DNA of 64,000 bases from a virus: the IMG/VR virus record IMGVR_UViG_3300034072_000758, positions 427,030 through 491,029 of that record; one strand, given 5' to 3'. This document shows positions 1-51,501 of the stretch, in pieces. Under the pieces are notes generated by a model. The model was not told where the DNA came from, did no database searches, and saw nothing but the letters and a program-made list of their open reading frames with translations. The translations under genes and the position numbers were made by a program. The number at the start of each line of letters is the position of its first letter. The stretch's first letter is position 1.

Positions 1-54
1 ATCTCCATGAAAATGTTGCGATAATATATCACGACATTTTCATTCGTCAATCAT

Positions 55-128
55 CTGTGTGTAGCTCAGTTTGGTAGAGTGTTCGCCTCGGACGCGAAAG
101 GCCGCAGGTTCAAATCCTGTCACACAGA
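55..128 (+). tRNA. tRNA-Pro (anticodon CGG)
   Basis: Hand-folded cloverleaf: acceptor CTGTGTG/CACACAG, D-arm GCTC-AGTTTGGTA-GAGT, anticodon stem TTCGC/GCGAA with loop CTCGGAC, T-arm GCAGG-TTCAAAT-CCTGT. Confidence 0.7.
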
Positions 129-130
129 CC

Positions 131-248
131 TTAGAACGTGATCGACATCTTGTTCAAATAAATGAACAGAACGATCAGTGATCCGATGGCACTCCAAATG
201 AGGATGCCGAAGATAAGCTTAAAAGCTCGGTCGTAAGAAGATTTCATT
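131..248 (-). CDS. small hydrophobic protein (39 aa, MKSSYDRAFKLIFGILIWSAIGSLIVLFIYLNKMSITF), below ORF-track cutoff
   Basis: Hand translation of the minus strand. Single predicted TM helix. Sits between two tRNA genes. Confidence 0.25.
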
Positions 249-330
249 TTAGTTTCCTCAGTGTTTTCTACGATGATCACTGTTTTTTACACAAATGTCA
301 ATAATATTTAGCGACATAATGTCGCAGTAT

Positions 331-402
331 GCTCAGGTAGGTCAGTGGTAGACCGTCTCTTTCGTAATGAGAATGCCGGGGGTTCGATTCCCTCTCTGAG
401 CA
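331..402 (+). tRNA. tRNA-Thr (anticodon CGU)
   Basis: Acceptor GCTCAGG/TCTGAGC, D-arm GGTC-AGTGGTA-GACC, anticodon stem TCTCT/TGAGA with loop TTCGTAA, T-arm GGGGG-TTCGATT-CCCTC. Confidence 0.7.
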
Positions 403-446
403 CGGACTTCATTAAGTGTCTATTGAAAAGAAAGGAGGACAACGAA

Positions 447-677
447 ATGCAAGTACAAACCCACAAACAAGTAAAACTCCATCGCAACAACGAACGCGAT
501 ACTCGTTGGATTCCTTCTGAGTTCGCTCATGAAGGGCGAACGGTAGACCTGAAAAATGGCGGCGAGTGGAGCCGTGGATGGATTGTTAAGGAAGTATTTG
601 ACCCCGCTGTGGAATCAAAGTATATTCAAGAACAGTCCCAGAACTACAAGAACCACCGTAAGGCAACTGACGTGTGA
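447..677 (+). CDS. hypothetical protein (start moved downstream of tRNA-Thr to ATG after RBS AAAGGAGG)
   Basis: ORF 345..677 overlaps the tRNA at its 5' end. An internal ATG at 447 is preceded by aaggagg 8 nt upstream. Confidence 0.5.
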   Translation: MQVQTHKQVKLHRNNERDTRWIPSEFAHEGRTVDLKNGGEWSRGWIVKEVFDPAVESKYIQEQSQNYKNHRKATDV

Positions 678-683
678 TTCGTG

Positions 684-706
684 AGGGACGCTCTGTCCCT
701 CATTAT
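684..706 (+). other. leader hairpin duplicating the acceptor 5' strand of the downstream tRNA-Gln (TGAGGGAC-gctctg-TCCCTCA)
   Basis: Inverted repeat seen directly, immediately 5' of the tRNA start. Confidence 0.4.
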
Positions 707-777
707 TGAGGGATGGTGTAACGGTAACACATCTGACTCTGACTCAGAAGTTCTAGGTTCGAATCCTAGTCCCTCAA
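707..777 (+). tRNA. tRNA-Gln (anticodon CUG)
   Basis: Acceptor TGAGGGA/TCCCTCA, D-arm GTGT-AACGGTA-ACAC, anticodon stem TCTGA/TCAGA with loop CTCTGAC, T-arm CTAGG-TTCGAAT-CCTAG. Confidence 0.7.
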
Positions 778-788
778 CAAGGTATGTT

Positions 789-1070
789 ATGCGACTTATG
801 ACCTCCGATGAAATACAACCCTTGGAAAAGAAGTTCATGGGGTACATTTCGACTCCGGTGTTGGATATTGATGGGATCGGTCAGTTATGCGTTAATAGAG
901 TATATATTCCTACTGATAAACTTGGTATCGGCAAATGGTATGTCACAGATGTGGCGACACCCGATGCGCATTTCGCCTTCATTCGTAACCCAGATCATTC
1001 GATCATGGAGGTAATTGTTTCCGGGGATACATCAGACGAGTATCTGATGAAGTTGGCCGTATGTCTTTAA
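789..1070 (+). CDS. hypothetical protein
   Basis: ORF 681..1070 trimmed to the first ATG after the tRNA-Gln (MRLMTSDE...). Confidence 0.5.
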   Translation: MRLMTSDEIQPLEKKFMGYISTPVLDIDGIGQLCVNRVYIPTDKLGIGKWYVTDVATPDAHFAFIRNPDHSIMEVIVSGDTSDEYLMKLAVCL

Positions 1071-1453
1071 TCGAAACATCTAGCCTGTCTGGGCTTGAGG
1101 CGATGGCTATAGATTATGGCTTGGATGGCTTTCACGAGTATGCCAACAAATTTTCTTTTTTTATGCGTCTCGAAGAAGTCGATTACGACAAGTTCATAAC
1201 CGAAGAATTGGTTATGGAAGTTGATGGATATTCTTTTCGGTTTAAAACCAACCCAGAAGAAACAGACGCAGAAATGGCATATGGCTGGCTTAAGTGTATA
1301 TACACCGATACTTTTGAAGTTTCTATCGTCGGCGACGTAGAGCAAAACGAAAGTAAGCAACTTGTCACGAGTAACAGTTTGTCGCAAGATGAACTTGAAG
1401 ATATAGTGTTTCGGTTAGCGTTGTTGACCAGTGATTACGGTATGGTCGATTAG
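1061..1453 (+). CDS. hypothetical protein (acidic)
   Basis: 130-aa ORF. ATG overlaps the upstream stop. Its stop TAG overlaps the first bases of the next tRNA. Confidence 0.55.
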   Translation: MSLIETSSLSGLEAMAIDYGLDGFHEYANKFSFFMRLEEVDYDKFITEELVMEVDGYSFRFKTNPEETDAEMAYGWLKCIYTDTFEVSIVGDVEQNESKQLVTSNSLSQDELEDIVFRLALLTSDYGMVD

Positions 1454-1518
1454 CTCAGTGGTAGAGCGCTCCCTTGACATGGGAGAGGCCGTAGGTTCGA
1501 ACCCTACATCGACCACCA
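1444..1518 (+). tRNA. tRNA-Val (anticodon GAC), CCA encoded
   Basis: Acceptor GGTCGAT/ATCGACC, anticodon stem CTCCC/GGGAG with loop TTGACAT, T-arm GTAGG-TTCGAAC-CCTAC, 3' ACCA. Confidence 0.75.
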
Positions 1519-1782
1519 ATTTTATTTTGGTGACTAAGTAAATTTAAATTGTAAATGCTTTGATGGGTGTGGTTATATCAGAAAAACCACAAAACAAAAC
1601 TATCGGAGCAAAGCAATGTCTAAGCCAGATTTCTTACGTCACTGTAATTTCCTCACGCCCGCTCAGGTTCGTGGGGTAACAATTACTCAGCCAGTAGCCC
1701 AACCGGCTGAAAAACAAGATGCTGTGGATAAAAGTAAATAAATATTTACAGCATGGCCTTGAATGTTGTATTCTAGGCTTAT

Positions 1783-1856
1783 CGGGGTTTAGCGCAGTCT
1801 GGTAGCGCGTCCGTTTTGGGTGCGGAAGGTCGAGAGTTCGAATCCCTCAATCCCGA
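1783..1856 (+). tRNA. tRNA-Pro (anticodon UGG)
   Basis: Acceptor CGGGGTT/AATCCCG (one G-U pair), D-arm GCGC-AGTCTGGTA-GCGC, anticodon stem TCCGT/GCGGA with loop TTTGGGT, T-arm GAGAG-TTCGAAT-CCCTC. Confidence 0.7.
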
Positions 1857-1894
1857 CATGTCCACGGTAACCATTCCGTAATGCGAAAGGCCCT

Positions 1895-1920
1895 GCCACC
1901 GGAAGGTGGTGGGGTTTTTC
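1895..1920 (+). terminator. rho-independent terminator (CCACC-GGAA-GGTGG + T-run)
   Basis: GC hairpin followed by TTTTTC. Confidence 0.6.
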
Positions 1921-1992
1921 ATTTCCCAACAAAATAAATTGACTTGAAAATCTTCTTTGTGCGATGATCGTTCATCAGTATAAGAGAGTATC

Positions 1993-2295
1993 ATGTTAAA
2001 ACTATCGACCGAAGTTCAAAACATTTTGTATAAGGCTGTAACGTTAGAAAACGAATACATGCCTACAGACTTAGAAATCACTACTTTGGGTGATTTTCTT
2101 CTGAATGTAGTCGAGCGCGCTCCCGATGCTGATTTTTTGGATCACCCGGAGATATTCGTCACGGTGTTTGATTTGATGCTTAATTACACAAGTACAGTAT
2201 GCCCCAATCATCCTCGTGTTCAATATATACGAGACCTGAAACAATTCTTTGAAGCACTTTGGAAAGACAAAAATGAAACTCGAAAAACTAATTAG
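1993..2295 (+). CDS. hypothetical protein
   Basis: 100-aa ORF with ATG start. Confidence 0.5.
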   Translation: MLKLSTEVQNILYKAVTLENEYMPTDLEITTLGDFLLNVVERAPDADFLDHPEIFVTVFDLMLNYTSTVCPNHPRVQYIRDLKQFFEALWKDKNETRKTN

Positions 2296-2701
2296 TGACG
2301 CGAAAAAAGGTGACGCTCCGTCTCAGTATAGCATTGGTATGCTATATGGTTACGGTACGCCGCTGACGCCGGACTTTTCCGAAGCAATCTTCTGGTTTGA
2401 AAAAGCCAGAGAACAGGATCACGCTGAGGCCATTTATAATCTCGGTGCGATTTATCAGTTCGAAGAGAACTTCAAAAATCTGGAAATTGCTAATCAGTAT
2501 TTCGAAGAAGCTGCCAAGCTGAAACACGATGTCGCTGCGTACAATCTCGGTCTGAACTATATGACCGGCCACGGAGTTCGTAAGGATGACGAGAAGGCGA
2601 AGTATTGGTTCGAGCAAGCCATTTTGTTTGGCAATAAGGTTGCGGTAACTATGTTGGCGCAATTGAAAACAAATCCAACTTTTTATAAAAGAGTTGCTTG
2701 A
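2273..2701 (+). CDS. Sel1-like repeat (SLR/TPR-like) protein
   Basis: Repeated Sel1 signatures (YSIGMLYGYG...AIFWFEKAREQDHAEAIYNLGAIY; AAYNLGLNYMTGHGVRKDDEKAKYWFEQA). The track start at 2249 is TTG, so the ATG at 2273 is preferred. Confidence 0.65.
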   Translation: MKLEKLISDAKKGDAPSQYSIGMLYGYGTPLTPDFSEAIFWFEKAREQDHAEAIYNLGAIYQFEENFKNLEIANQYFEEAAKLKHDVAAYNLGLNYMTGHGVRKDDEKAKYWFEQAILFGNKVAVTMLAQLKTNPTFYKRVA

Positions 2702-2726
2702 CAGATCAAAACTGTTGATATATAAC
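2698..2726 (+). promoter_or_regulatory. sigma70-like promoter TTGACA-N17-TATAAC driving the large non-coding region
   Basis: TTGACA at 2698-2703 overlaps the stop codon of the upstream gene. TATAAC lies at 2721-2726. Confidence 0.5.
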
Positions 2727-2732
2727 CTTAGA

Positions 2733-4047
2733 CATGGTGATGAACCGGTGACTTGAGCTTTGGTAAAGCTCGAATTTACCAGTTAAAGAGAATTAAGCTG
2801 GTCCCCGATTTGCTTAGTTCGACGGTTCATCATCATATTGAACTAAATTGGATGGAGAGGTTGCGGTAACGAGTCCCCAGAGTCATTTGACTCAGCCTTT
2901 GGACTTAACCCCGTCCGTGCTTTTCGGTGTGGTAGCTCAAGATTGACAAGAGCGTTCCATCCAATTTAGTTTAATTGGGTAAGTCTTCGGGCCTACCGTT
3001 GGGGGAAGGATCAACACGGCTGCTGGCATGTTCCAGACAGGTGCCTTCCCTTTTAAATTCGCTCGAAAGAGCAAAGAGATTGTTCGGTAGGATCAAATCT
3101 TGGGTGATCGTGCGCTGGTCATCATGAGATAAAAGACCGGGGGCTAGTCCAGCCTCAAGTATCGGTGAAAGTCCGATCCGAACAACCAAATTCTGTGCTT
3201 CGTTGCGAAAGCGAAGGGGATTGACAGTCAGTCCCTAGCCTCATTGGAGGTCATCACAGAACGTTACCCCACGGTGAAATATACGTGTGGCAGAGGGAGA
3301 GAGCCAATTGCGAGGAAATGCGCGCCGGTCTTTCCCTCATATAATTCGCTTGAAAGAGCAAATAACAAGTTGGCCGCTCGCATGATCGTTCCGAGAGGTA
3401 AGAGCAAAGATCGGTAGATGTTTCTACCAAATTGACGCCAACAACCGAGAAAGAGGGAACTACGGGCCTAACCAATCCGTAAATCTCTCAGTGAGTGGAC
3501 AGGAGTTGCGGACGCCCTTGGTCGGGAAGGTCACAACTCCGAAGTTGCTCAAAGTTTGGGCCGAAAGGCCATAGCCGCGTGGTGACGAACCAGTAAGTCG
3601 GCTACGAGTTTCACCGAGAATGAGGCTGGGTGTACCCGTAAGTCCTCTACTCTCTGGTGTTTAAAGTTGAATACGGACGAGCGCCCTGTGCGCGAACAGG
3701 TGATGGGCGCAGCCCTAGAGGATGGCAACGTCCGCTATACCTTCGGGGAAGCATCGGTTGGTAGTGATTAATCCAATCCGCTCGTGTTCTACTCTAAACA
3801 TTTCGGGTGACTAACATTTAGGGCTGGGGTCGCTACCCAAATCCGGTGTTGGTGTACAATTAATGAACGGCAAACTAGACTTGTTTCAGTAATTCTTTGT
3901 GCTGGCTTATTTGATAGAGCAAACAGCCTGAAAACTAAATAGAATACTCCCTGTGTGATCTGGCACTGGCAGGATTGTGGTTGACAAGACCCACTCGGCG
4001 AGTCTAAATGGACAGGCATTTACGGTACGCCTACTTATTACCGTTAT
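2733..4047 (+). ncRNA. large (about 1.3 kb) structured non-coding RNA candidate ending immediately 5' of tRNA-Ala. The class is unassigned: GOLLD/ROOL-like ornate RNA or an ORF-less intron-like ribozyme are both possible.
   Basis: No ORF longer than 119 aa in any frame and no RBS-linked ORFs. Consensus promoter at the 5' end. Many GNRA-tetraloop hairpins (GCTC-GAAA-GAGC twice, GGGCC-GAAA-GGCC, GCGAAAGC, CTTCGG). Long-range stems (GCGCCC...GGGCGC at about 3680-3710). An internal 45-nt duplicated module at 3044-3086 and 3329-3374. GC content above the surrounding genes. Confidence 0.45.
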
Positions 4048-4120
4048 GGGGCCATAGCTCAGTTGGTAGAGCACCTGCTTTGCAAGCAGGATGTCGTCGG
4101 TTCGACTCCGACTGGCTCCA
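4048..4120 (+). tRNA. tRNA-Ala (anticodon UGC)
   Basis: Acceptor GGGGCCA/TGGCTCC (G3-U70 present), D-arm GCTC-AGTTGGTA-GAGC, anticodon stem CCTGC/GCAGG with loop TTTGCAA, T-arm GTCGG-TTCGACT-CCGAC. Confidence 0.75.
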
Positions 4121-4237
4121 CTCGAATTTTGTGATAGATCGCCCCATAGGGGATATGCGTCCGTCACAGAGTTCCGGGGTTTGGGCCGCTTCCTCTCAAA
4201 AAGAAAAAGCGGTCGCTTAAGTTTTCGGAGTTGCGTA

Positions 4238-4567
4238 ATGAACCGGGCAGAAGCATTACTTGGCACAAAGCCAAAAGTTCCTAATCAGGTTCCTCCCGAA
4301 GCTAAACAACATATTCATGAATGCATCAAAAACGCCATGAATAATGGCGACACATCCTGCTATATCAATGTCCACGATCACCGTGTTCCTATCAGCACAC
4401 TCGATTTGGAAGTCATTGAAGTATACCTCAAAGCCGAAGGATATAGATGTCATGTCCATTCCTATACGGATGAACATGGCAGCGATGATGTTCTAGTCAT
4501 CAAATGGGGAGAAACTTTCTTCGAAAGAGTGAAAAGATGGTTCCGTTCTATCCAAGAAAAAAACTAA
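4238..4567 (+). CDS. hypothetical protein
   Basis: ORF 4091..4567 trimmed to the first ATG after the tRNA (MNRAEALLGTK...). Confidence 0.5.
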   Translation: MNRAEALLGTKPKVPNQVPPEAKQHIHECIKNAMNNGDTSCYINVHDHRVPISTLDLEVIEVYLKAEGYRCHVHSYTDEHGSDDVLVIKWGETFFERVKRWFRSIQEKN

Positions 4568-4848
4568 AAGTATATTACGGATACTACTACTCCAAAAGTC
4601 CCCAACCGGTGCGCGGGCGAAGATATTTGGGTTGGTATCGCCGGAATGCAACACGCTTTCATCGTATTTACCGCGTAGTAGAAAGCGTTGCTACGCTTGA
4701 TCCACCAATTCGTCCCGGTCTTCCCAGAATGTATTTTACGGTCAAGTATTCCGGTCGTGATTGGGATTACGGTGAATTGAATTGGACCAAAGAACAGGCC
4801 GATGAACGTTGGCTGAACAGAAGAAACGAAGGTGCTTGTTTCACCTGA
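4537..4848 (+). CDS. hypothetical basic protein (start uncertain, 4504 or 4537)
   Basis: ORF 4504..4848 overlaps the upstream gene. Arg/Tyr rich. Confidence 0.35.
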   Translation: MVPFYPRKKLKVYYGYYYSKSPQPVRGRRYLGWYRRNATRFHRIYRVVESVATLDPPIRPGLPRMYFTVKYSGRDWDYGELNWTKEQADERWLNRRNEGACFT

Positions 4849-4965
4849 TATGGGCTGCTTGGAGTTTAGCTGGGTTCGAATCCCGCTCGATCCACCATTA
4901 AGATTGGGTCGATGTCACCGGAAGACAAGAGCGGGTTCGAGTCCCGTCCAGTCCACACCCTTTAT
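4849..4965 (+). other. two tRNA 3'-half-like fragments (T-arm + 3' acceptor + CCA/CAC: ...GGGTTCGAATCCCGCTCGATCCACCA and ...GGGTTCGAGTCCCGTCCAGTCCACA) with no matching 5' acceptor strand
   Basis: T-loop consensus GGTTCGAWTCC seen twice. No complementary acceptor 5' strand upstream. Confidence 0.4.
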
Positions 4966-5038
4966 GGGGCCATAGCTCAATTGGTAGAGCGCAAGTATGG
5001 CATACTTGAGGTCGCCGGTTCGATCCCGGCTGGCTCCA
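4966..5038 (+). tRNA. tRNA-Ala (anticodon GGC)
   Basis: Acceptor GGGGCCA/TGGCTCC, D-arm GCTC-AATTGGTA-GAGC, anticodon stem CAAGT/ACTTG with loop ATGGCAT, T-arm GCCGG-TTCGATC-CCGGC. Confidence 0.7.
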
Positions 5039-5116
5039 CATTTATTAGTTGACAGCTTGACAACAAAATAAAACCTGTTACTCTCCTGAATAACTCTAAT
5101 ATCAGGAGAATAAAAT

Positions 5117-14689: not shown

Positions 14690-15051
14690 TGATCGACGCT
14701 CGTAATTTCGCCACCATGTTATACAGGATAACAGATGGCAATCCTTTAACCACAGATTTGGGGTACGTCCGGCTACACTATCGGATCGACGGTGAGGAAG
14801 ATTTCATCATATTCGATATTACGGGTCATGCATATCATCCGGTCATAGAGGGACAGACTGGTGTTTCAGAAACATTTATGACTATTCGACACCAACACTT
14901 CTATATGAAGGTTGGTGTTTGGTATAGCGAAGTTTCCAAATCCATTATAAGGGCATGGTACAGAAATGGGTGGGATAATAAAGCGGTGTATAAAATTTAT
15001 AATCAAGAGGACGCTGAGAAGCATATAATGGCGGCTATGCTATATGTCTAG
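14689..15051 (+). CDS. hypothetical protein, tandem paralog B (MIDARNFATML...)
   Basis: 120-aa ORF with an ATGA overlap. Confidence 0.5.
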   Translation: MIDARNFATMLYRITDGNPLTTDLGYVRLHYRIDGEEDFIIFDITGHAYHPVIEGQTGVSETFMTIRHQHFYMKVGVWYSEVSKSIIRAWYRNGWDNKAVYKIYNQEDAEKHIMAAMLYV

Positions 15052-15427
15052 CCAACCATTCGATAGCAATCCAGAGTATGTAAAGAATCTTCCTTGGGGG
15101 TGTATTGCGCGACTTTGCCAAAGTAATATTAAAAAGAGATTCTTAGAATTTAATGATCAAGATTTCGTTTTTTCTGTAGATGAACTCACCAATGGTGTGG
15201 ATACTGCGAGGTATCATGTATTACTTTCTGAAATACAAATCGATCCTATATACGGAATATATCGTTATACAAAAAAGCTGTTCACCGCTTACGTTCATTT
15301 TGAGCGCGTGGAAAATCGCTTAATGGGTTCTAAACCACCTCTCTCTTTGTATATGCCCGTCGAGCTTTACGAGGACGACGCACCGTTAGTAGAAGAGGTG
15401 ATTTTTATGATGGCATTATTATCCTGA
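15044..15427 (+). CDS. hypothetical protein
   Basis: 127-aa ORF. Confidence 0.5.
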   Translation: MSSQPFDSNPEYVKNLPWGCIARLCQSNIKKRFLEFNDQDFVFSVDELTNGVDTARYHVLLSEIQIDPIYGIYRYTKKLFTAYVHFERVENRLMGSKPPLSLYMPVELYEDDAPLVEEVIFMMALLS

Positions 15428-46350: not shown

Positions 46351-47538
46351 ATAATTTGCTAATATGTTTCTATAATATTTTAAATACAAGTTCGAGTTTC
46401 CCGAAACGTTATTCATAGTTACAATAATATCCAGATTGTCTATGTAAAACCTCACAAATTCGGTAGCATCAATTGGTAATGTGACATCACTTAACATGCT
46501 TATGGAACGAAGTGCCGAGTCATAATAATAAATCTCGTGTGGCGCACTAGGAGAACTTGAATTTTTCATATTTGTTATGATCAAATATTTGTTAGTTCGA
46601 TTTGATATTTTATGTATATGGCTGTTCCCATTACTTATTATGCTTCTGGTATAATTGTTTATATTGCCCTGTAACGAACTCGTCTCATCGGTTACAACGG
46701 ACGTAGAGGGGTTATAAGAAAAATAGGAAAATTGAGGATGCGTTACGCTGCTTGAACCATGATGTAGCAACAATTCATTGTTGGCCGGGGATAACATCGC
46801 GCGAGACGCAAGGTTACCAGATACAAAGGTATATGGGCTTGTGTATGTTTGTTCATACGTGATGCCGGTAGACGTATTGAACTTGAAGAAATATAAATAG
46901 CTTCCATTCATATTCCACATCACAAAAGTGTCGTCATTAATCCATTCTACTTCACACACCGCACCAAATGAGCTATAACCCGGAATACCGGTAGGCACAG
47001 TAATAGTAAAATTAGAAGCCGGGGTCAAAACCGTTACATATACCGTTCCACTAAGAACACTCGCCGTAGCCGCCCAATCATTTGTTTTATGCCAACCATT
47101 TGCGGTAGTCGTACTCGCAGCCGAGGTAGCATGGTAAATAGAGCGTGATGTCGATGTAGAGGCAAATGGAAATGTTGTTAACACATCAGAACCACTTACA
47201 GTTGTCTGTGGATAACCACCAAAAACCGAGGGTTTATGAAGCGCTCTCGTAAAAGTAAAAGGACCACTACTATAAAAACCTGATGAATTTGCGGTATCTT
47301 TCACATACAAATCGGTCCCGGTATTCAACATAATAGCATATCTTATACCAGACACATAATAGCCGCTCGAAGCAGTGGTTGTATCTTTTCCGTATGAATA
47401 CAGGCCATTTACCATTGGTGCTGTACTTGGGTGTACTTTACCATTAAAGCTTACAAAATACGGGGTGTGATCAAACCTCGTACTTGAGGTCTGAGCGGGC
47501 GATGTACTTTTTCCTTCAACCAAATAATGATACAGCAT
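46348..47538 (-). CDS. fiber-like structural protein (Ser/Thr/Tyr/Asn-rich, 396 aa)
   Basis: Composition. ATGA-coupled to the upstream collagen-repeat gene. Confidence 0.5.
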   Translation of the reverse strand: MLYHYLVEGKSTSPAQTSSTRFDHTPYFVSFNGKVHPSTAPMVNGLYSYGKDTTTASSGYYVSGIRYAIMLNTGTDLYVKDTANSSGFYSSGPFTFTRALHKPSVFGGYPQTTVSGSDVLTTFPFASTSTSRSIYHATSAASTTTANGWHKTNDWAATASVLSGTVYVTVLTPASNFTITVPTGIPGYSSFGAVCEVEWINDDTFVMWNMNGSYLYFFKFNTSTGITYEQTYTSPYTFVSGNLASRAMLSPANNELLLHHGSSSVTHPQFSYFSYNPSTSVVTDETSSLQGNINNYTRSIISNGNSHIHKISNRTNKYLIITNMKNSSSPSAPHEIYYYDSALRSISMLSDVTLPIDATEFVRFYIDNLDIIVTMNNVSGNSNLYLKYYRNILANY

Positions 47539-48818
47539 TATGAGAAGTTCTTCCCGATCTGGGTTAGAAGATACGTTAAACCGCCGTCATATGTAAATAC
47601 AGTGTAAACATCTACCGCACCATTCGACGTGGATTGTGTATACGTAACATTCTGGGGGGTTCTGGCCGATGCTGGCCATGTTACCGAAAATGCTCCGCCC
47701 CCCTGCCGCACCGCAACAATCGCAGTATATGTTCTGGATGTCGAAACCGCATTCGTGAAGGCAAAACTTGTAGCCCCGGTTAAGGTAATATTATAAAAAT
47801 AGTTAGCACCTAGATCGAGCGTAACAGTTCCAGACGCACTAGCAACCACCGCAACATTTTCATAAGTTGGCCCCATCGGACCTTGAATACCTTGAATGCC
47901 CTGAACACCTTGAATACCTTGAACACCTTGAATACCCTGAGCACCAGTATTACCTATAGGGCCTTGTATACCTTGTATACCTTGCGGACCTTGTGGTCCT
48001 TGCTCACCTCTAACATACCCAGCGTTCCCAATCGATCCATTGGAATATAGAATATTAAGCCAGCCGGTAATCGCGTTGGCCGAAACAATACCATTACCAT
48101 ATGGACCTGCTGGTCCGGTCGCGCCTTGGTTACCCTGTGGCCCCTGTGGGCCGATCACCGAACCAGCATCAATCGTCGCTCCCGTTGAGAGAGTCAGAAT
48201 AAGGCGTCCTGAGCCATTGACCACTGCTGCTGTAACACTGGTCCCACTTGGACCCACCACGGCACCGGCATTGATCACGGTTCCAGACGTAAGCGTCAGA
48301 TAAAGTTGACCGTTCGTAACTGTAGCAGACTGTACACCAACACCATTGGTCCCAGAAGCCCCATCTAAGCCCTTTACGTAGCCAGCATTGATCGTGAGGC
48401 CGTTGGACATATTAATGAAGAGATCGCCGCTCTGAGCTACGTATGCGCCTTGTACGCCTACACCGTTTTCACCCACAACATCACCCACGTCGATGACCGT
48501 GTTATCAGTCAAAGTGAAAATCAGATTTTGGTTCAGAATTTGCGCGTTGGAAACGCCGACGCCTTGCGGACCAGCCTCGCCAGTAGGAACGATCCCGGCA
48601 TCAATGACTGAGTTATCGGTCATGAGCATCAGAAGATGATTCTCACCGTTTACGTACTCAACGTATACGTTGGCAACACCCACCCCACGCGGGCCTTCTG
48701 GCCCCATAACAACAGGGATTTTATCGACCACGGCATTAGGTATTATCGTGTCGTTTGTATTGTTGAACATAACTGGTGGAGTACCACCGGGAAGACGGGC
48801 ATTGATAATATCTGGCAT
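47538..48818 (-). CDS. collagen-like triple-helix-repeat fiber protein
   Basis: Runs of G-X-Y triplets ([19 protein letters not shown]; [47 protein letters not shown]) encoded by 9-bp tandem DNA repeats at about 47880-47960. Confidence 0.7.
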
Positions 48819-50812: not shown

Positions 50813-50903
50813 TGGAGGACGTGGTGGGACTCGAACCCACGGTGGTCTATGTTACGACAACAGGTTAAGAGCCTGTCCCTCTCGCCGCTGAGGTGACACG
50901 TCC
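50813..50903 (-). tRNA. atypical type-II (long variable arm) tRNA with lysine anticodon CUU; chimeric derivative of the canonical tRNA-Lys(CUU) at 51517-51593
   Basis: 5' GGACGTG-TCA-CCTC-AGCGGCGA-GAGG-G-ACAGG-CTCTTAA-CCTGT-[TGTCGTAACATAGACCACC]-GTGGG-TTCGAGT-CCCAC-CACGTCC-T-CCA. Acceptor stem, T-arm and anticodon loop are identical to the canonical Lys(CUU). It adds a Ser/Tyr-like D-arm and a 19-nt variable arm. Confidence 0.55.
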
Positions 50904-51366: not shown

Positions 51367-51417
51367 ATAGAAAACCTTTAATATAGATCGTTATCCACAT
51401 CCATATTAAAGGTTATG

Positions 51418-51501
51418 AGGATGTAGAGGGACTCGAACCCCCGATGGTCTTTTGACAACGGATTAAAAGCCCGTCCCTCTCGCCGCTGAGGTGATACATC
51501 C
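51418..51501 (-). tRNA. atypical type-II (long variable arm) tRNA with lysine anticodon UUU
   Basis: 5' GGATGTA-TCA-CCTC-AGCGGCGA-GAGG-G-ACGGG-CTTTTAA-TCCGT-[TGTCAAAAGACCATC]-GGGGG-TTCGAGT-CCCTC-TACATCC-T. The 22-nt D-region TCACCTCAGCGGCGAGAGGGAC is identical to the other atypical tRNA. Confidence 0.55.

Follow-up and report, generated by a model that had tools for sequence, protein, structure and literature searches.

We examined a segment of a phage genome that carries no credible open reading frame (ORF) and lies directly upstream of a transfer RNA (tRNA) gene. The whole stretch of DNA analyzed, hereafter the window, comprises 64,000 nucleotides (nt) of IMG/VR virus record IMGVR_UViG_3300034072_000758 (positions 427,030 to 491,029 of the record; all positions below are counted from the first letter of the window). 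A Sel1-repeat gene at 2273–2701 (Pfam Sel1, 5.8e-25) is followed by the segment in question at 2702–4047 and then by tRNA-Ala(UGC) at 4048–4121, which was called by ARAGORN and by the Rfam tRNA model (74.9 bits) and has no encoded CCA. An earlier reading of the letters, made without database searches (the sequence-only reading), had described the segment as a promoter-driven structured RNA of about 1.3 kb abutting this tRNA; the two do adjoin each other directly. What we observed is a noncoding segment of approximately 1.0 kb with an excess of well-defined folding, a strand bias, internally kept pairing, and no match to an RNA family.

Coding capacity and composition

The segment had been said to lack a credible ORF, and our analysis agreed. 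Across 2702–4047, the longest contained ORF is 76 amino acids (aa), and each of the six frames carries 17–27 stop codons. Recoding of a single stop codon (TGA, TAG, or TAA) across the same interval opened no long or convincing frame, and a six-frame Pfam search of 2702–4047 returned no family at E ≤ 1; a hidden protein gene was rejected on the strength of these two negative results. No longer stretch of the 64-kb window is free of ORFs of 80 aa or more; the remaining such gaps lie in or beside tRNA arrays, and the rest of the phage is densely coding.

The GC content of the segment, which had been described as elevated, is indeed above average, but modestly so: it is 0.504 at 2734–3750 against a window mean of 0.460 ± 0.034, within the top 13% of the windows compared, and 0.444 at 3751–4047. 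We also considered a second ORF-free candidate, a 950-nt intergenic region that lies within the upstream 7.7 kb of the same contig (L004:4098-5048) and directly precedes an 11-tRNA array. With 43% GC, three terminator-like hairpins, and a 46-aa ORF, it was rejected as an ordinary AT-rich terminator and promoter region. In contrast to this ordinary spacer of the same phage, 2734–3750 is neither AT-rich nor laden with terminators.

Predicted fold and repeated modules

The minimum free energy (MFE) of 2734–3750 (1,017 nt) was −390.2 kcal/mol, compared with −328.0 ± 8.1 kcal/mol in 80 dinucleotide-preserving shuffles (z = −7.7), whereas five coding controls of the same length from the window had z-scores ranging from −0.65 to −2.35. 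In addition, the fold is defined with unusual precision: a partner at p ≥ 0.9 was predicted for 43% of the bases, compared with 18 ± 8% in shuffles (maximum, 35%) and 11–25% in the coding controls, and the ensemble diversity per nt was 0.117 versus 0.248 ± 0.055 in shuffles. The excess of structure is spread across domains 1–4 described below, and a z-score of −5.4 was still obtained for 2976–3750, that is, without the two 5′ hairpins. Conversely, 3751–4047 is ordinary in this respect (z = −0.57), so that of the 1.3 kb of structured RNA that had been proposed, approximately 1.0 kb, from 2734 to about 3750, stands. A search for tandem or iteron repeats in the region found none. An array of a different kind occurs on a contig of another phage carrying a cysteinyl-tRNA synthetase (CysRS) gene, where positions 1–240 (L191) hold three TGTTTCACGTGAAACAT palindromes in ORF-free, AT-rich sequence with z = −4.5; this array is operator- or iteron-like, and DNA-level repeats can imitate RNA-like folding scores.

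Five domains are predicted on the plus strand. Domain 1 (2734–2836) is a Y-shaped three-way junction closed by a 13-bp helix (2734–2746 with 2824–2836, p = 0.9–1.0); it coincides with inverted repeat I1 and has z = −6.6, with a folding energy of −43.4 kcal/mol on the plus strand versus −31.1 kcal/mol on the minus strand. Domain 2 (2837–2975, z = −5.4) is a long hairpin with a 21-bp basal stem (2837–2857 with 2955–2975, p = 0.95) and an ill-defined distal part, and corresponds to inverted repeat I2, which is 95% complementary. The arms of the 5′ inverted repeats measure 25 and 20 nt, with 76% and 95% complementarity, respectively. Domain 3 (2976–3151, z = −2.9) is multibranched and holds the first copy of a repeated module. 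Domain 4 (3152–3626, z = −5.8) is a large multibranched unit of 475 nt, coinciding with inverted repeat I3, in which most helices have p = 0.9–0.99; it is closed by helices 3152–3157 with 3621–3626 and 3162–3170 with 3609–3617 (p = 0.95), and contains the second module copy, whose stem in the predicted fold spans 3293–3302 with 3329–3338, together with a third, related unit. Long-range complementary stems, which the sequence-only reading had pointed out, are thus present, for example 3162–3181 with 3598–3617. The core of domain 5 (3627–3750) consists of two well-defined hairpins (3681–3710 and 3713–3748, p = 0.97–0.99) but scores only z = −1.0 on its own. A tentative 19-bp long-range helix (3627–3646 with 4014–4033, p = 0.65–0.85) would tie the 3′ tail to this core. 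The tail or spacer itself (3751–4047) is not unusually structured; it carries the fourth copy of the octamer described below and a second TTGACA (3981–3986) with a weak −10 box. Pattern searches for an 11-nt receptor, a T-loop, and a loop E yielded nothing informative.

GNRA hairpins had been noted and are indeed present, namely GCTC-GAAA-GAGC at 3061–3072, GCTT-GAAA-GAGC at 3348–3359, GGCC-GAAA-GGCC at 3559–3570, and GC-GAAA-GC at 3205–3212. Altogether, the plus strand has nine stem-closed GNRA or UNCG hairpins and the minus strand three, against a background of about three per kb, and 0.7% of shuffles reached nine. An internal duplication of 45 nt had also been noted. Its 21-nt core is strong, being identical at 20 of 21 positions (3056–3075 versus 3343–3362); the extended duplication of about 45 nt is weaker, at approximately 3 standard deviations above shuffles.

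Each module is laid out as a purine-rich strand paired with a pyrimidine-rich strand, an A/U-rich linker, a 4-bp GAAA hairpin, and AAA. In copy 1, the stem is formed by 3001–3009 with 3044–3052, followed by the GCUC-GAAA-GAGC hairpin (3061–3072) and then AAA; in copy 2, the stem is formed by 3293–3301 with 3330–3338, and the hairpin is GCUU-GAAA-GAGC (3348–3359). We compared these paralogous modules with each other, letting them stand in for homologues. All 13 aligned pairs are canonical in both copies; at one of them both partners have changed in a compensatory manner (G-C to A-U), and at four others a single partner differs, by way of G-U pairing. This retention of pairs is thin evidence, yet it is the outcome that selection on RNA pairing would be expected to produce. 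The third unit (3376–3408) has the same GCUC…GUAA-GAGC-AAA ending, with an insertion in the loop. The octamer AGAGCAAA occurs six times in the 64 kb, and four of the six occurrences lie inside the region, all on the plus strand (3068–3075, 3355–3362, 3401–3408, and 3916–3923). In the first three, its GAGC forms the 3′ strand of a GCUY/GAGC helix, after GNAA and before an unpaired AAA. We found no paralogues of the region elsewhere in the window.

Strand and flanking signals

Several independent signs favor an RNA of the plus strand. Over 2733–4047, the predicted folding energy was −477.9 kcal/mol for the plus strand and −427.1 kcal/mol for the minus strand, and the plus strand was also the more stable in every domain. 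The plus-strand fold has 42 G-U pairs and the minus-strand fold 24, and there is one A-C mismatch on the plus strand versus three on the minus strand; a G-U pair counts as a mismatch in a DNA hairpin, and so does its counterpart on the opposite strand. In addition, the adjacent tRNAs and genes lie on the plus strand, like the proposed RNA.

A promoter overlapping the stop codon of the upstream gene had been proposed, and the corresponding TTGACA-N17-TATAAC is there. Its −35-like hexamer TTGACA (2698–2703) covers the TGA stop (2699–2701) of the Sel1-repeat gene and matches the consensus at six of six bases, and a 17-nt spacer separates it from the −10-like hexamer TATAAC (2721–2726), which matches at five of six. 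The site was not among the calls of an automated promoter scan of the window. Transcription would start at approximately 2733–2734, judging from the position of this promoter-like site, and the first predicted helix begins with base 2734. Within one mismatch of TTGACA-N17-TATAAT, this is the single site in the whole window. Given a chance expectation of 0.51, the match is meaningful only by virtue of its position. Its weight derives from its location exactly at the 5′ edge of the structured region and from a −35 box that is common to a family of intergenic TTGACA-N16-TAtnnT sites of this phage (9262, 17939, 19341, 33209, 40054, 41968 on the minus strand, 45907, and 48844). With up to two mismatches, that pattern matched 14 times in the window, compared with 7.3 ± 3 expected, which suggests that many genes of the phage are transcribed by the host sigma-70 polymerase.

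At the other edge, the 5′ end of tRNA-Ala is presumed to be the RNase P site that would define the 3′ end of a co-transcribed RNA. We found no intrinsic terminator on the plus strand at 2918–4047; one weak terminator-like site occurs at 2900–2917. TTGACA hexamers within the region start at 2943, 3221, and 3981, none of them with a good −10 box, and tRNA-Ala may have its own promoter-like site at 3981. The 116 nt following the tRNA (4122–4237; the next ATG is at 4238) form two hairpins (z = −2.0), neither with a clear U-tract, and transcription therefore probably runs past tRNA-Ala into the downstream genes.

Comparison with known RNA families

We searched the whole window against Rfam 15 (4,227 families) with gathering thresholds, and relaxed the cutoff to E ≤ 10 for pieces of 1.6 kb, 621 nt, and 436 nt. 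The classes that the sequence-only reading had named as candidates did not appear at E ≤ 10 (GOLLD, ROOL, HEARO, group I and group II introns, RNase P RNA, and transfer-messenger RNA [tmRNA]), and only tRNA was returned; there was likewise no covariance-model match at E ≤ 10 to ribosomal RNA fragments, OLE, or tRNA remnants. As a positive control, the same search recovered a permuted tmRNA in another phage locus (L209), and the negative result for the region is therefore meaningful.

The GOLLD family (RF01998) comprises highly structured phage- and prophage-encoded RNAs of more than 800 nt, of unknown function, which often lie by tRNA islands and are sometimes linked to a tRNA (PMC12286853). 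The habitat next to tRNAs that had been noted for GOLLD and ROOL was confirmed for the region, which sits in a phage tRNA island and abuts tRNA-Ala (PMC12286853). It shares with GOLLD the genomic habitat, orientation, and size class as well as contact with a tRNA, but it is longer and has neither known relatives nor a match to the GOLLD covariance model; therefore, the universally conserved 3′ domain of that family is absent, and GOLLD was rejected. ROOL (RF03087), an ornate RNA of about 600 nt that is likewise found in phages and prophages near tRNA islands and has no known protein partner (PMC12286853), differs from the region in size and predicted architecture, and was rejected because its model did not match. 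The likeness of the region to both families is limited to habitat and size class.

The remaining classes were also rejected. HEARO (IscB omega RNA, RF02033) gave no model match, and neither an IscB/HNH-type ORF nor a Pfam remnant of one was detected in or beside the region; moreover, the tRNA-adjacent habitat that had been ascribed to HEARO was not borne out, as these RNAs accompany IscB/IS605 elements rather than tRNA genes. For group II introns, there was no match at E ≤ 10 to Domain V/VI (RF00029) or D1–D4 and no reverse transcriptase/maturase ORF or remnant; GUGYG pentamers are present, but on reading the sequence we saw no domain-V-like hairpin with an AGC triad. The model of the group I intron P3–P9 core (RF00028) did not match, and the flanking tRNA is intact. 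With respect to RNase P RNA (RF00010, RF00011, and others), no model matched at E ≤ 10; GGUGAAAGUCCG and GGUAAGAGC are chance-level 9-mers in the wrong order, presumably not collinear with E. coli M1 RNA.

A permuted tmRNA was considered because the host is probably a member of Caulobacterales and the region lies beside tRNA-Ala; Caulobacterales use a two-piece tmRNA. ARAGORN reported no tmRNA, and the Rfam models tmRNA, alpha_tmRNA, and tmRNA_permuted had no match at E ≤ 10, so this class was rejected as well. The tmRNA nevertheless offers a parallel, being a structured RNA that belongs to the translation apparatus and is encoded by large phages. The control locus, a 44-kb phage contig (IMGVR_UViG_3300025844_000379), carries an alphaproteobacterial-type permuted tmRNA at 14984–15314 (115.9 bits), within a 2.2-kb ORF-free gap and approximately 3.7 kb from the CysRS gene of the contig.

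Search for relatives

Relatives in phage databases, which the sequence-only reading had proposed to look for, did not emerge: when 50,697 phage records were searched by blastn (word size 11), the region had no match, and positions 1–5100 as a whole had matches to tRNAs only. No match to the region was found by blastn in 72,556 plasmids, nor did nhmmer detect a homologue in 268 fetched loci, including 80 CysRS neighborhoods of other phages. Scans of IMG/VR for exact patterns (the module, a double AGAGCAAA, and two other segments) returned chance matches only, in coding or unrelated intergenic sequence, and scans of JGI metagenomes and GTDB genomes for the module likewise gave only chance matches, as checked by blastn and nhmmer. 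The collections scanned by exact pattern do not include the source contig. One weak nhmmer hit (L126, E = 1.4e-4) was rejected, since it is an intergenic hairpin of 200 nt in a bacterium and is arranged differently.

Comparison of loci by their genes was also negative. Sinorhizobium phage Phosso has no comparable gap near its CysRS gene, the 80 phage CysRS loci from IMG/VR showed no similarity to the region, and the contigs of 240–608 kb among them, about 12 in number, had no ORF-free gap of at least 600 nt. Among 14 viral loci with a similar tRNA-Ala, none showed similarity, and an upstream ORF-free region was absent from the 13 that were readable; one of the loci, belonging to a 578-kb phage, has tRNAs immediately upstream. 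The element is thus not widespread in recognizable form, although the searches do not establish its uniqueness.

Phage, host, and neighborhood

The source genome belongs to a jumbo phage whose size is at least 516 kb, as proteins of the window recur on a 516,805-bp JGI contig. They also occur on two Logan contigs (run SRR10854512) that match the window at 100% identity and both break within tRNA-Ala at 4081–4083. ARAGORN found 25 tRNA genes in the window and 11 more lie just upstream on the same contig, giving at least 36 within approximately 72 kb. The window also encodes cysteinyl-, aspartyl-, and seryl-tRNA synthetases, a ribonucleotide reductase, and an NAD synthase (NadE), and the gene set of the phage includes a PTH2-type peptidyl-tRNA hydrolase.

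A 1,773-aa protein has 34–36% identity to virion structural proteins of Phosso (469 kb) and Agrobacterium phage Atu_ph07 (490 kb), to which the phage is, by its protein sequences, only distantly related; the best phage match to the CysRS is that of Phosso (44%). The genome was identified as that of a phage from these two protein matches. The nearest named cellular CysRS, with about 52–57% identity, belong to Caulobacterales such as Asticcacaulis and Phenylobacterium. This affinity hints at the host, which is probably a Caulobacterales bacterium. The phage CysRS lacks the C-terminal anticodon-binding domains that its cellular homologues have. The proteins flanking the region, a 299-aa protein and the Sel1 protein, are ORFans, with no relatives among 5.8 billion proteins or in IMG/VR.

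Farther away in the window, two tRNA-Lys genes on the minus strand are overlong (50813–50903, CTT, 91 nt; 51417–51501, TTT, 85 nt). Both sit in a dense minus-strand array of 14 tRNAs in which Lys, Leu, and Arg isoacceptors are duplicated, and given the normally short variable arm of tRNA-Lys, they may reflect an insertion, an intron, or a mis-assignment. A 426-aa protein encoded at 47538–48818 on the minus strand contains collagen triple-helix repeats (Pfam PF01391, 6.3e-08) and is probably a fibre or decoration protein.

Interpretation and alternatives

The stretch from 2734 to approximately 3750, possibly to 4047, may be a promoter-driven, large structured noncoding RNA of the plus strand that belongs to a new class and occupies the niche of GOLLD and ROOL; in our judgment, the chances for and against this are even. 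Whether the region is a functional RNA at all we would answer with a yes about half of the time. The original idea of a large ornate RNA, perhaps a new one, is supported in part, in that the segment is noncoding, promoter-proximal, over-structured, placed in a tRNA island, and without a match to any known class; the ribozyme that had been offered as an option is unsupported, since nothing points to catalysis.

Several points weigh against this interpretation. The minus strand is strongly structured too (z = −6.2), and individual domains score somewhat too favorably in z because they were delimited on the MFE fold itself. AT-rich ORF-free gaps with palindromes or iterons in other phages reach z ≈ −5, and z alone is therefore no proof of an RNA gene; unlike those gaps, 2734–3750 is GC-rich and has a nested, multibranched fold with long-range closing helices (p = 0.95). 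By chance alone, the window would contain about 0.5 promoter matches of the quality seen here, and the −10 box of this one, TATAAC, is without the conserved final T. No homologue was found in phage records, plasmids, IMG/VR, JGI metagenomes, or GTDB genomes, in searches that are weak for a diverged RNA, as exact patterns of 17–20 nt miss diverged sequence. The only close relative is a 3.7-kb Logan contig (L006, SRR25400529), whose CysRS is 75% identical and which ends approximately 2 kb short of the region.

The segment might instead belong to the tRNA-Ala unit as its long, structured leader or spacer, transcribed but affecting only the processing, stability, or expression of the tRNA, and degraded after the RNase P cut. 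Its position resembles that of RNase P-processed leaders of tRNA operons, immediately ahead of a same-strand tRNA, downstream of a promoter-like site and with no convincing terminator in between; the absence of homologues is what a lineage-specific spacer would predict, and the tentative helix 3627–3646 with 4014–4033 stops 14 nt before the tRNA. However, a leader of about 1.3 kb contrasts with the tens of nt (approximately 10–80) that precede the remaining tRNAs of the island after their own promoter-like sites, and the region folds far more strongly than expected by chance. For a leader, a well-defined fold of a kilobase, rich in GNRA loops and with repeated modules, would be costly; the ordinary spacer of this phage, AT-rich with 43% GC and many terminator-like hairpins, looks different; and the tRNA could be transcribed separately from the second TTGACA at 3981. 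We regard a mere leader as unlikely. Nor do we think it probable that the region is a DNA-level cluster of inverted repeats serving replication, packaging, recombination, or protein binding and yielding no functional RNA. Its 42 G-U pairs in predicted helices, strand-asymmetric tetraloops and octamer, GC-rich rather than AT-rich composition, lack of iterons and tandem repeats, and nested multibranched architecture with long-range closing helices, unlike a row of local palindromes, argue against such a cluster, even though the long 5′ inverted repeats are near-perfect (arms of 25 and 20 nt; 76% and 95%), the minus strand also reaches z = −6.2, and palindrome- or iteron-bearing ORF-free regions of other phages give comparable z-scores.

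Another view is that the segment is the remnant of a decayed gene, intron, or mobile element, or fast-evolving junk, whose structure has no selected function. The sequence is an orphan among ORFan genes, and by our own estimate about 9% of random 1.2-kb sequences would have no ORF of 80 codons or more. For this decay to be correct, which we consider quite improbable, a decaying sequence would have to retain a z-score of −7.7, a definition above that of every shuffle, and module pairs kept between two copies; in addition, the six frames hold no protein remnant, no intron or other RNA family matches, the rest of the phage is densely coding, and the 950-nt spacer considered above shows what ordinary intergenic DNA of this phage looks like, namely AT-rich and rich in terminator-like hairpins. 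Similarly, we assign only a slim chance to the view that, in place of one large RNA, the region holds several independent small RNAs or cis-regulatory hairpins next to each other. Domains 1 and 2 are self-contained hairpins, a weak terminator-like hairpin occurs at 2900–2917, and TTGACA recurs internally at 2943, 3221, and 3981, but the internal sites all lack a good −10 box, good terminators do not separate the domains, and domain 4 alone is a 475-nt unit whose closing helices have p = 0.95.

Returning to the single large RNA, we infer its transcription, ends, processing, and function as follows. Host sigma-70 RNA polymerase would initiate at approximately 2734 from TTGACA-N17-TATAAC, and the transcript would fold co-transcriptionally into the five domains. 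Because no convincing terminator intervenes, transcription would continue into tRNA-Ala(UGC), and an RNase P cut at 4047/4048 would free a leader RNA of about 1.3 kb, the 5′ 1.0 kb of which would be the folded body. Alternatively, the tRNA could be transcribed from the weak site at 3981, in which case the large RNA would end somewhere past 3750. The weakest step is the last one, in which the folded scaffold would act on translation or the tRNA economy during infection; this role is favored by analogy, because the context, a phage tRNA island, is the same as that of GOLLD and ROOL. The thrice-repeated GNAA-GAGC-AAA hairpin unit is a putative contact or binding element for RNA or protein.

In its boldest form, the proposal makes the region the first representative of a new class of ornate RNAs, about a kilobase in size and located in the tRNA and translation islands of half-megabase phages. 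Such an RNA would be larger than GOLLD and unrelated in sequence to GOLLD or ROOL, consist of repeated GNAA-GAGC-AAA hairpin modules, be cut from a tRNA precursor by RNase P, and act during infection as a scaffold or assembly on the translation or tRNA machinery. We offer this as a tentative possibility that is rather doubtful at present. To our knowledge, very few RNAs of bacteria or phages near or above 1 kb are known besides ribosomal RNAs and introns, and GOLLD and ROOL were recently found to form RNA-only nanocages whose purpose is unknown. The present value of the region, a single orphan sequence and a candidate RNA known from its letters alone, is that of a well-characterized lead. If the proposal is true, the region would be a new target for structural biologists, and a third, unrelated, and larger RNA in phage tRNA islands would suggest that big folded RNAs have a general part in the control of translation by phages.

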